Shown: piece after piece, positions 1-22,731 of the stretch
How positions within the stretch are numbered: position 1 is the first letter of the stretch
Layout: every line of letters begins with the position of its first letter
Source: a marine group bacterium Sva0996 bin134
GTDB lineage: Bacteria > Actinomycetota > Acidimicrobiia > Acidimicrobiales > Bin134
Reading direction: 5' to 3'
DNA length: 64,000 nt
Assembly: GCA_002239105.1 (NCBI GenBank)
Contig: MPNQ01000006.1
Span: forward strand, 2,595-66,594
Program-made: the position numbers and the translations under genes
Notes under the pieces: generated by a model
Database searches by the model: none
Told to the model about the DNA's origin: nothing
Seen by the model: the letters and a program-made list of their open reading frames with translations, nothing else

Positions 1-830
1 AGCCCTTCCTCGGCGAGCATCTCACCAACACCGGGCAAGTCCTTGGCCGCCATACCCGACGCCAAGTGGTAGAGGGCGATCAAGCTGTGGGTCTTGCCGC
101 CGCCGAAGTTGGTCTGAAGCTCGATAACCGGGTCGCCGCCGCTTCCCGACAGCCGGCTCACAGCACCCACCAAAAGATCACGCAGCCCTTGGGTGATATA
201 GGTGCGGGCGAAGAACTCTCTCGGATCCTGATACTCCGGCTCGGCATTGCCTTTGAGCACCTCGAACAAGTCAGCAGCGAACTCCGCTTGTTCAAAGTTG
301 CCCTGGGCCACATCTGAATGCGGCATGATGATGTCGCGCCAGGCGGTCAACCCCGCCGTCGGGTGCCCCTCGGTGGGTTTGGCCGCCGTCTTGCGCCGCT
401 GGGCCCGTGACTCCTCATCCACCATCTGGCGCATCAAGTCGCGCCGCAAATCCCGGATCTTCTGACGCTCATCCAGGTTGCCAAAGGCCTCCAGCAGCCG
501 CTCCATGGAGTCGAGCGCCCGGGCCGTGTCGTCGGTGGACAGCGCCTGCTGGTGCGCCCAGCTGTTGCGGGCGTCGGCCACCTCGAACACCAGCGCCCGC
601 ACCGCCGGCGGAAAGCCGTGGCCGAACACTTCCTGCCAAGTGGCCTTCATCCCCTTGAACAGAAACGCCGCATCCTCAGTCGACGGGCTGCGCTCGGGAG
701 TGTGCAGCCGCCCATTGACCGCCTCGAGCCACCCGTCGCCATAGAACCCTCGCCACGTGTCCTCGCACTTCGGCCGCAGCCCATCGCGCAGCAGATCGAG
801 CGCCCTTGAGATGCGCTCGGTATTGGCCAT
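1..830 (-). CDS. Swt1-like HEPN domain fused to DUF499/COG1483-type P-loop ATPase (first 276 codons; the gene runs off the left edge)
   Basis: Absent from the ORF track because there is no stop in the window. My reverse-complement translation from ATG 830-828 reads MANTERISRALDLLRDGLRPKCEDTW... It contains a HEPN Rx4H motif (FEVADARNSWAHQQ). About 250 aa in lies the Walker A stretch ELQTNFGGGKTHSLIALYHL, typical of DUF499 ATPases that accompany DUF1156 methylases. Confidence 0.8.
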   Translation of the reverse strand, partial: MANTERISRALDLLRDGLRPKCEDTWRGFYGDGWLEAVNGRLHTPERSPSTEDAAFLFKGMKATWQEVFGHGFPPAVRALVFEVADARNSWAHQQALSTDDTARALDSMERLLEAFGNLDERQKIRDLRRDLMRQMVDEESRAQRRKTAAKPTEGHPTAGLTAWRDIIMPHSDVAQGNFEQAEFAADLFEVLKGNAEPEYQDPREFFARTYITQGLRDLLVGAVSRLSGSGGDPVIELQTNFGGGKTHSLIALYHLASGMAAKDLPGVGEMLAEEG

Positions 831-993
831 CACCATCGGCGGCACCTACCTTGCTGCTCACGCACGGGGCGAGCATACGACAAGAGCTCCAAAGCGCTTA
901 GAGTCTGCGTGGTATTGGGCGCTGGAGTCCGAACACAGGGGGCTAGCATGAACGGACGACAGGGCAGAAGTCTGAAGAAAACTCTGACTCCTA

Positions 994-22100: not shown

Positions 22101-22731
22101 ACAACTGGTCGACGCGGGCCACCAGCAGGTTCTTCTCCAGAAACGGGTTGCCGGTGCGCGACGCCTCGACCGCCGAGCGGGACATCAGCTCGAAGCTGAG
22201 GCCGAACTTGTCCCACAGCTCGTCCTGCCACTGCTCCACCAGGCTGCCGGGGGCGACGATTAGGCAGCGGGCCACGTCGCCCCGAAGCATGAGCTCTCGG
22301 ATCAGCAAACCCGACATGATGGTCTTGCCAGCACCGGGGTCGTCGGCCAGCAAGAACTTGAGCGGGCGCTGCTCCAAGAAGCGGTTGTAGACGGCGTCGA
22401 TCTGGTGGGGGTAGGGCTCGATATTGGAGGTGTCCACCGCGGCATAGGGGTCGGACAGGTGAGCCGACTTCATGCGACGGGCTTCCGATGCCAGGCGGAA
22501 CGCGGCACCGTCGGCGTCGAAACTCCACCGCTGTTTGGACACCTCACCGATCCCGGCCAGGTCGTCCACCGTGATGATGCGCTCGCCGAGGCTCCCGCTG
22601 GCCGAGCGGTAGGTCAGGGTGGCCGAACCAGCCCCGTGGACTTCCAGGGCCACCACTGTCACGTCGCCGTCGGCCACCACTCCCGACAGCCGTATTCCAG
22701 CTGTGAGGTAGTCGAACTTCAGGCCAGTCAT
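19195..22731 (-). CDS. SNF2-family helicase with C-terminal DUF3883-like PD-(D/E)xK domain
   Basis: Helicase motifs: [19 protein letters not shown] (I), VIVDEAHKM (II), [11 protein letters not shown] (III), [37 protein letters not shown] (VI). The C-terminal nuclease-like part is [22 protein letters not shown]. Length 1178 aa. Confidence 0.9.
   Translation of the reverse strand: [1178 protein letters not shown]

Follow-up and report, generated by a model that had tools for sequence, protein, structure and literature searches.

A Hma-type defence locus of an uncultured Acidimicrobiia-type bacterium whose gaps hold other immune genes and a member of a large unnamed family

Results

Three hma genes on one strand

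A preliminary description of a 64,000-nt stretch of contig MPNQ01000006.1 (assembly GCA_002239105.1; the whole stretch is called the window here) had proposed three minus-strand genes at 22731-19195, 4523-1761 and 830-<1, encoding a SNF2-DUF3883 helicase, a DUF1156 methylase and a HEPN-DUF499 ATPase, as a module resembling restriction-modification (R-M) or bacteriophage exclusion (BREX) systems that had been split open by other defence genes. Open reading frames (ORFs) were found at these coordinates, and domain searches with Pfam and PADLOC upheld all three assignments and identified the module as the Hma system, with hmaA (19195-22731), hmaB (1761-4523) and the 5' part of hmaC (1-830) on the same strand and in the order A-B-C. 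The gaps between them hold genes of known defence families and, next to hmaB, a 138-aa ORF followed by the gene of an unnamed 1470-aa protein.

The 1178-aa product of hmaA matched SNF2-rel_dom, Helicase_C and NOV_C (PF13020, formerly DUF3883) in Pfam, as expected for a SNF2 helicase with a C-terminal PD-(D/E)xK nuclease, and aligned end to end with the HmaA model of PADLOC (1305 bits, model positions 2-1171 of 1176); the PADLOC BrxHII model gave 313 bits. For the 920-aa product of hmaB, a predicted DUF1156 N6-adenine DNA methyltransferase, Pfam returned DUF1156 (E 1.3e-27) and a MethyltransfD12 motif, and the HmaB model of PADLOC was matched with 1076 bits over positions 10-958 of 967. The 276 codons of hmaC that lie in the window encode a HEPN_Swt1 RNase domain (E 1.5e-23, Pfam) and the start of a DUF499 AAA+ ATPase; this fragment scored 175 bits with PADLOC HmaC and covers the first ~115 positions of the HmaC and DUF499 models. 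As the preliminary description had recommended, the remainder of the ATPase gene was looked for on the left. Contigs from other assemblies that are 100% identical to window 1-14523 add 3.9 kb on that side, and on two of them (L001 and L002) hmaC is complete with 1080 aa (PF18731 and PF04465/DUF499); for hmaC, the match to NCBIfam DUF499_antiphage (E 1.3e-47) stays below the equivalog cut-off. Four retrieved contigs were identical to the window at 100% across the shared 12.8-14.5 kb, and the identical HmaB protein is carried by nine contigs in all. After hmaC, only a 40-aa ORF and an IS256-type (Transposase_mut) transposase at the contig end follow. A DUF3780-type gene, the other gene suspected on the left, was found neither in these 3.9 kb, where the contig ends, nor among the window ORFs scanned.

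Related loci, numbered with the prefix L, were gathered in two sets, the first found via the 1470-aa protein and the second consisting of five loci chosen only by HmaB similarity (77-87%). The catalytic motifs of all three proteins were present, namely GAGKT and D1084...E-V-K in HmaA, PFAGGG (motif I) and DPPY (motif IV) in HmaB, and RNSWAH (HEPN Rx4H) and GGGKT in HmaC. Pairwise ratios of non-synonymous to synonymous substitution rates (dN/dS) against four relatives were 0.07-0.18 over the three genes (hmaA 0.07-0.18, hmaB 0.12-0.13, hmaC 0.07-0.15). Since the motifs are in place and these ratios are low, the system is judged to be intact. Within hmaB, each of the blastn alignments to L011, L088 and L092 is interrupted inside the stretch ~3005-3628, between methyltransferase motifs I and IV, and the remainder of the gene aligns at 74-86%. 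Such a break would fit a variable target-recognition insert and, with it, strain-specific methylation motifs.

Order and cargo in related loci

In all 15 independent related loci that had two or more hma genes in range, the A-B-C order and the common strand were kept, and no junction was contiguous in any of them. Here 2.0 kb (L089) to more than 14 kb lie between A and B and 0.7 to 8.2 kb between B and C, which places the window at the upper end for cargo size. The content of the gaps varies and includes DRT (RT_UG23), Ppl, a PLD-like nuclease, a Macro-domain protein, PemK, a SLFN/HATPase protein, Dsr1-like sirtuins, SPARSA, Avs2, AbiL, DUF222-HNH, PIN/PhdYeFM, an M78 peptidase pair, a module of Dcm, HEF_HK and Response_reg_2, an N6_N4 methyltransferase and IS256. 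To the check proposed earlier, whether the three genes are contiguous in homologous loci and whether cargo varies at the same two junctions, the answer is that none of the 15 loci has contiguous hma genes and that cargo differs at both junctions; the idea of a landing pad for immune genes, put forward on the window alone, agrees with this conserved order and differing cargo.

Comparison with L009, L011 and L088 put the breakpoints of the variable segments close to flanking gene ends (of hmaB, hmaC, hmaA and AbiLi), at distances of 2-130 bp. They lie at 841/842, 11 bp upstream of the hmaC start; at 1824/1825, 64 bp beyond the hmaB stop; at 13372/13373, 2 bp upstream of where the cargo gene AbiLi starts; and at 19064/19065, 130 bp beyond the hmaA stop. 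A search of the island for att-like or flanking repeats gave short chance matches only, scans of the whole window for Rfam families and tRNAs gave no match, and no integrase, transposase or tRNA was present inside window 1-23500.

Cargo of the two gaps

The hmaA-hmaB gap measures 14,671 bp and contains four units, Avs2, AbiL, a short prokaryotic Argonaute (pAgo) and the 138/1470-aa pair; with the 0.9 kb between hmaB and hmaC, the cargo comprises about 11 ORFs across 14.7 kb + 0.9 kb. The gap of 14.7 kb with at least four defence-type units that had been described before is therefore correct in length and in number, but the pAgo unit is dead and the 138/1470-aa pair belongs to no recognisable defence family.

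Avs2, a STAND NTPase antiviral sensor of 1384 aa (14271-18425, plus strand), matched one PADLOC Avs2 model with 968 bits and a second one with 591 bits (positions 3-1346 of 1379), the Pfam NACHT match being weak; the gene is intact. Upstream of it lies a 134-aa ORF (13748-14152, plus strand) that had no Pfam match and is called as a gene on the identical contigs. In L009, 675 bp stand in place of the 5.7-kb segment 13373-19064 that holds both, and L092 has a 76%-identical Avs2 at another site, divergent from hmaB.

The adjoining AbiL unit consists of an AbiLi-like AAA_21 ABC-type ATPase (12072-13370, minus strand, 432 aa; AAA_21 E 3.9e-33 in Pfam, PADLOC AbiLi 297 bits) and a RloB/AbiLii-like protein (11413-12072, minus strand, 219 aa; RloB E 4.2e-35 in Pfam, PADLOC AbiLii 84 bits). 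The two genes overlap by 1 nt, so that AAA_21 ATPase and adjacent RloB are present as in AbiL systems, and the unit is likewise intact. Orthologues of the AbiL pair are located directly downstream of hmaA in L009 and L088; in the window the Avs2 segment intervenes, which points to its insertion between the AbiL pair and hmaA, although the relatives may instead have lost it.

Of the short pAgo system only parts are left. The class-I short pAgo (MID-PIWI; 9684-10967, minus strand) lacks ~77-80 N-terminal codons, and its match to PADLOC pAgo_I (593 bits) begins at model position 46. Its SIR2-APAZ partner is reduced to the first 36 codons (10983-11092, minus strand), which run out of frame into the pAgo gene at codon ~77. 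The orthologous locus of L009 is intact, with a 632-aa SIR2-APAZ (PADLOC Aga_SIR2-PNTD1-PNTD2, 632 bits) and a 507-aa pAgo, and blastn together with inspection of the junction revealed that 1,944 bp of L009 (15885-17828) are missing at window 10977-10982, where ~6 nt of unmatched filler are found. The intact partner and full-length pAgo that define a short pAgo/SIR2-APAZ (SPARSA-type) system are hence not present. A functional truncated pAgo was considered, given a dN/dS of 0.08 against L009, and rejected, as the promoter-proximal partner has been lost and the two remnants are fused out of frame; a recent deletion is the likelier reason for the low ratio. The pAgo system is therefore a dead deletion remnant.

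Between hmaB and hmaC, an 87-aa ORF (1030-1293, plus strand; putative antitoxin) precedes a divergent PIN/VapC-like putative toxin (1248-1676, plus strand), for which the maximal ORF has 142 aa and gene callers give ~128 aa. The 87-aa ORF had no family match in Pfam or NCBIfam. The 142-aa ORF aligned with NCBIfam VapC over 4-120 of 125 positions at E 0.008, well under cut-off; a profile of its seven-member family, in which D21, E59, D106, D123 and D126 are invariant, matched Mycobacterium tuberculosis VapC15 (4chg_A) with E 3.4e-4. No Pfam PIN match was obtained, and hhalign of the family against a Pfam-positive PIN protein from L090 was negative. The layout, in which a small overlapping gene precedes the toxin, fits VapBC. 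From the preliminary claim of an antisense VapBC cassette at this place, the antisense pair stands and its VapBC identity is weakly supported by the matches to VapC and VapC15, so that we call the pair VapC-like with reserve. It recurs just 3' of hmaB in L011, L088, L091 and L092, as if it were a semi-resident of that flank; in L088, two to three copies are scattered in tandem over 13047-17505, downstream of hmaB, and several other loci have one copy.

Two observations concern the small ORFs of the island. About 600 bp downstream of hmaA (18602-19196), which contain small ORFs only, are 81% identical to a stretch of L011 between hmaB and the 138-aa ORF and, as judged from this match, are a relocated piece of non-coding or small-ORF sequence. 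The BrnT/BrnA-like small ORF pairs of L006 and L007 had no counterpart in the corresponding region of the window.

A 1470-aa protein of a large unnamed family

The 138-aa ORF (4673-5089, plus strand) overlaps the start of the gene of the 1470-aa protein (5086-9498, plus strand), a candidate new defence gene, by 4 nt. Neither protein matched anything in Pfam (E up to 10), NCBIfam, PADLOC or sequence-profile searches of the PDB. Both are under purifying selection, with dN/dS of 0.13-0.27 for the 138-aa ORF and 0.13-0.31 for the two ORFs together. The 1470-aa protein starts with a clade-specific helical extension (residues 1-190), which is followed by a conserved GWDG...WE...K domain (~192-345), an alpha/beta domain without a P-loop and a HEAT-like alpha-solenoid (~570-1470). 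The solenoid was modelled well (residues 571-1470, predicted local distance difference test (pLDDT) 86) and gave karyopherin-type fold matches with E ~3e-5. For residues 1-620 the mean pLDDT was 73, with low values across the putative active site, and the fold search led to weak matches, at first to Avs4 (E 0.018) and then to AAA+ clamp loaders and STAND proteins. A P-loop was absent from the alpha/beta domain of every family member compared. In the N-domain, GWDG...WE is invariant and K-A-x-x-D-Y-x-K-R near-invariant, with D246 and E266 invariant and K277 near-invariant, and the modelled order alpha-beta-beta-alpha-beta-alpha-beta is compatible with a PD-(D/E)xK nuclease. A 33-sequence profile of this domain matched no known family or nuclease. 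As the fold matches are weak and the putative active site is poorly modelled, the reading as a nuclease is unproven.

At least 156 close homologues of the 1470-aa protein were found, all of them unnamed. In a scan of 1.84 billion representatives the family comprised, when clustered at 50% identity, 5,697 clusters for E<=1e-3 and 2,450 for E<=1e-30, with a typical length of ~1,260 aa; its members are called 'hypothetical' in the sources, and a literature search for their accession numbers gave no match. The family spans bacteria and archaea, and among species-representative genomes it is present in Actinomycetota, Alpha-, Beta- and Gammaproteobacteria, Acidobacteriota, Nitrospira, Gemmatimonadota and Methanothrix. 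The ~190-residue N-terminal extension and the overlapping 138-aa ORF upstream are features of L006-L040, mostly labelled Acidimicrobiia, and the ORF is present in nearly every locus of this clade for which the upstream region is covered. Distant homologues are single genes, and a search of their neighbours for a conserved partner yielded antisense shadow ORFs only. About 15 of 113 such neighbours matched PADLOC at E<=1e-15, a count made without formal control, and include AbiE, SoFic, HmaC, type I and III R-M, DruE, DRT and LmuB. With tblastn, matches were obtained on 209 plasmid records, mostly partial, 20 of which cover >=80% of the query; some of these copies are annotated as 'HTH transcriptional regulator' owing to an N-terminal helix-turn-helix (HTH) fusion. 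The plasmid copies sit among genes for RT+SLATT (RT, reverse transcriptase), Shedu-domain, Abi, SIR2, RES-Xre and AbiEii proteins.

In 14 of 33 non-redundant loci of the L006-L040 clade the pair is directly divergent from hmaB; about half of these 33 have no hma gene within 10 kb. L018 has only a 54-codon N-terminal hmaB stub beside the pair (9279-9440) and no other hma gene in range; this could have come about by decay of Hma around the pair or by a joint move of the pair and the divergent promoter region. The five HmaB-selected loci all lack the pair, which is therefore regarded as recurrent cargo and not as a core component.

Gene orientation and the region between hmaB and the pair

Antisense blocks interrupt the hma genes at both junctions, with the 4.8-kb 138/1470-aa pair and the 4.2-kb Avs2 between hmaA and hmaB and the small pair between hmaB and hmaC. 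Because long antisense genes separate them, the hma genes would not form a single operon, and each probably has its own promoter. The 149 bp between hmaB and the 138-aa ORF (4524-4672) are a putative promoter/5' untranslated region (UTR). An AT-rich block (ATTTCATTATATT...CGAATCGAGTAGCC) between these two genes is kept in eight of nine aligned loci. In the window it is found at 4590-4672, upstream of the 138-aa ORF (ATTTCAATATATT...GATCGAGTAGCC), in surroundings with a G+C content of ~60%; its conservation in eight of nine loci holds despite proteins that are only 50-80% identical. The block could serve as promoter or operator or form a 5' UTR, and its conservation fits a shared regulatory region of hmaB and the 138-aa ORF. 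The sole sigma-70-like match within 1-20000 falls at 4588-4617 and is not above chance.

Discussion

Assignment to Hma

Every defining feature of Hma that could be tested was found at this locus, namely HmaA, HmaB, HmaC, their co-localisation in the order A-B-C and the lack of a DUF3780 gene. Hma was defined by PADLOC in 2021 from 1,638 three-gene loci in 26 phyla (Payne 2021, PMC8565338) and was re-described in 2026 as the 'Type-1 DUF499-centred BREX-related (BR) system' (PMC12839542). As no DUF3780 gene was detected on the left, the locus is placed with Type-1 rather than Type-2 BR. The association of the three genes is beyond chance, since they form a defined PADLOC system with ~1,500 occurrences (PMC8565338; 10.1101/2024.01.29.577857). 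From the Hma core the window genes show no difference, all three proteins matching the models end to end; the NOV_C PD-(D/E)xK fusion of HmaA is shared with the helicase-nuclease fusions of 79% of Type-1 systems, and the N-terminal HEPN of HmaC with the HEPN-fused ATPases of 1,370 out of 2,446 Type-1 taxa (PMC12839542). We thus consider the locus very probably a complete and selectively maintained Hma system, the gaps of which are loaded with other defence genes.

The likeness to BREX lies in homologous ATPase, N6-methyltransferase and SNF2 helicase components. The differences are that the ATPase is DUF499 and not BrxC/DUF6079, that the methyltransferase has a DUF1156 N-terminus and that the helicase carries a nuclease predicted to be active. 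Neither PglZ nor BrxC, BrxA, BrxF or BrxB-type proteins were matched among the 14 ORFs scanned in 1-23 kb, of which only HmaA resembles BrxHII, and the absence of a PglZ or BrxC match among them led us to rule out BREX proper (types 1-6). A parallel is offered by type I R-M loci in which PrrC/RloC-type ABC ATPases are embedded and by BREX loci that contain BrxU, as there too a methylation-based host system has an ABC-ATPase/RloB-type back-up module inside; the host system here is Hma.

Proposed function and points against it

By analogy with homologues in the literature, from which all steps of the mechanism are drawn, HmaB as a DUF1156 N6-adenine methyltransferase would mark host DNA, HmaC as a HEPN-fused ORC/Cdc6-like DUF499 ATPase might recognise invading DNA and assemble a restriction complex, and HmaA as a SNF2 translocase would nick or degrade the invader via its C-terminal PD-(D/E)xK domain, as shown for the Halomonas homologue against T4. 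HmaA of Halomonas meridiana alone protects Escherichia coli from T4, for which its helicase domain and D-ExK motifs are required, and its C-terminal NOV_C domain carries out Mn2+-dependent nicking of supercoiled DNA (Liu et al. 2024, PMC11232893). With this published defence and nickase activity, the earlier statement that the mechanism had not been characterised experimentally no longer holds for HmaA. The two inter-gene gaps have accumulated other immune genes, as is typical of Hma, and this cargo was most likely swapped by recombination with the conserved hma genes as flanks.

Several points weigh against this interpretation. The function of the locus is deduced entirely from its sequence, and recombination-mediated cassette exchange is read from the positions of the breakpoints only. 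In the published work HmaB had no effect on T4 infectivity, and hmaB or hmaC is missing beside 15-20% of hmaA genes (Liu et al. 2024, PMC11232893), so that an R-M-like division of labour is unproven. The promoter and terminator scan stayed at or below shuffle expectation and was uninformative on transcription units. Finally, the cargo of the window is mostly antisense, as opposed to 96.7% co-oriented embedded genes in the survey of Payne et al. 2024 (10.1101/2024.01.29.577857), and a benefit from co-regulation would therefore not apply to this locus.

Alternative explanations

If the hma genes no longer cooperated, the region would be a generic defence island, with hmaA working by itself and with hmaB and hmaC either independent or decaying. 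The separation of the three genes by 14.7 kb and 0.9 kb that hold antisense genes would suit this, as would the protection of E. coli by HmaA alone and the 15-20% of hmaA genes found without hmaB or hmaC (PMC11232893), and decay is seen both in the island, where the pAgo system is deleted, and in L091, where hmaA is disrupted by IS256. Yet hmaB and hmaC have kept their full length and their motifs, both genes show dN/dS values (0.07-0.15) as low as those of hmaA, and order and strand persist in every related locus examined despite complete turnover of the cargo, which makes such a loss of cooperation very improbable; the split Hma system is probably still alive. A different question is how the cargo arrives. 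Site-specific or transposon-mediated insertion instead of homologous recombination across the hma genes would agree with the IS256-type transposase that flanks hmaC (L001 17065-18354, 3.9 kb left of the window), with the IS256 copies inside the L091 locus (2570-3874 and 13517-14821), which split hmaA in two, with the 19% of hma loci that have phage integrases nearby (Liu et al. 2024, PMC11232893) and with the 3.1% of embedded genes that are mobility-associated (Payne et al. 2024, 10.1101/2024.01.29.577857). Window 1-23500, however, contains neither an integrase, a transposase or a tRNA nor any att-like repeat, direct or inverted, and the breakpoints match conserved gene ends and not repeat-bounded units. 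The identity to L088 is uneven (HmaA 95%, HmaB 87%, AbiLi 91%, RloB 64%), as would be expected for a recombination mosaic. We regard insertion by mobile elements as unlikely; breakpoints at the ends of hma genes and the lack of att-like repeats or an integrase favour cassette exchange by recombination.

A second set of alternatives concerns the 138/1470-aa pair, which might be a lineage-specific fourth and fifth Hma component, co-regulated with hmaB from a shared divergent promoter, and not cargo. It occupies the same divergent position beside hmaB in 14 of the 33 related loci at 50-81% protein identity, shares the conserved AT-rich intergenic element, accompanies the 54-codon hmaB stub of L018, and has three distant homologues within 10 kb of distant HmaB/HmaC-like genes. 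This is countered by its absence from all five HmaB-selected loci, including the closest, L088, by the occurrences without an hma gene within 10 kb, which make up about half, and by distant homologues that stand alone in unrelated defence islands and on plasmids, so that we hold a role as Hma component to be quite unlikely. The pair may belong to an undescribed and very widespread anti-phage family, with a ~1,260-aa core of a PD-(D/E)xK-like N-domain, a P-loop-less alpha/beta domain and a ~850-aa HEAT-like solenoid; this is well conceivable, if far from certain, and for the 1470-aa family as such a defence role is plausible. Its layout is similar to that of Avs-type sensor-effectors, from which it would differ by the lack of an active NTPase.

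Embedding in Hma and its meaning

Embedding of genes in Hma is already published, and there is nothing new in the landing-pad reading. Embedded genes were found in 62.7% of 1,485 Hma systems and are the basis of a 'guilt-by-embedding' screen (Payne et al. 2024, 10.1101/2024.01.29.577857); insertions were reported for 66.5% of hma loci, and the region was called a defence-gene insertion hotspot (Liu et al. 2024, PMC11232893). Like the embedded systems of Payne et al. 2024, the window nests both known (Avs2, AbiL/ABC-ATPase pair, short pAgo) and unknown genes between the hma genes, and the ABC-ATPase pair, the commonest embedded class of that survey, occurs in the window too. That survey was limited to three embedded genes per gap, and the window cargo with its ~11 ORFs is larger than usual. 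Further differences are that one embedded system of the window, SIR2-APAZ/pAgo, is a deletion remnant and that the 138/1470-aa pair matches no HEC or PDC model in PADLOC-DB 2.0. The only detail that departs from the published surveys is the orientation of the cargo.

The locus is thus ordinary for Hma and of an already published kind, the exception being one cargo gene of a large unnamed family. As a Hma locus it adds little, namely a heavily loaded example of a published phenomenon, extended to uncultured Acidimicrobiia. It shows that Hma can take up very large and mainly antisense insertions with the hma genes still under purifying selection, and this tolerance speaks against co-transcription in an operon as the cause of embedding. 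What remains of interest is the 1470-aa family, a large unannotated family to which 'guilt by embedding' leads in this case. Its members on plasmids of cultivable Rhizobium, Cupriavidus and Escherichia could be cloned and tested directly.

Host and genes to the right of hmaA

The host appears to be an uncultured Acidimicrobiia-type bacterium, and its relatives bear names that point to a sponge symbiont. On its right, hmaA is followed by ordinary metabolism, with genes for a short-chain dehydrogenase/reductase (SDR), a solute-binding protein, an acyl-CoA dehydrogenase, a thiolase and a major facilitator superfamily (MFS) transporter, and the G+C content is ~0.66 there versus ~0.60 in the island. 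At 50001-51000 it falls to 0.49 compared with ~0.65 around, with a GC skew of -0.187 and an AT skew of +0.252; this stretch sits in a maximal 667-aa ORF (49937-51940, minus strand), of which the Pfam MFS_1 match covers residues 200-431 only.

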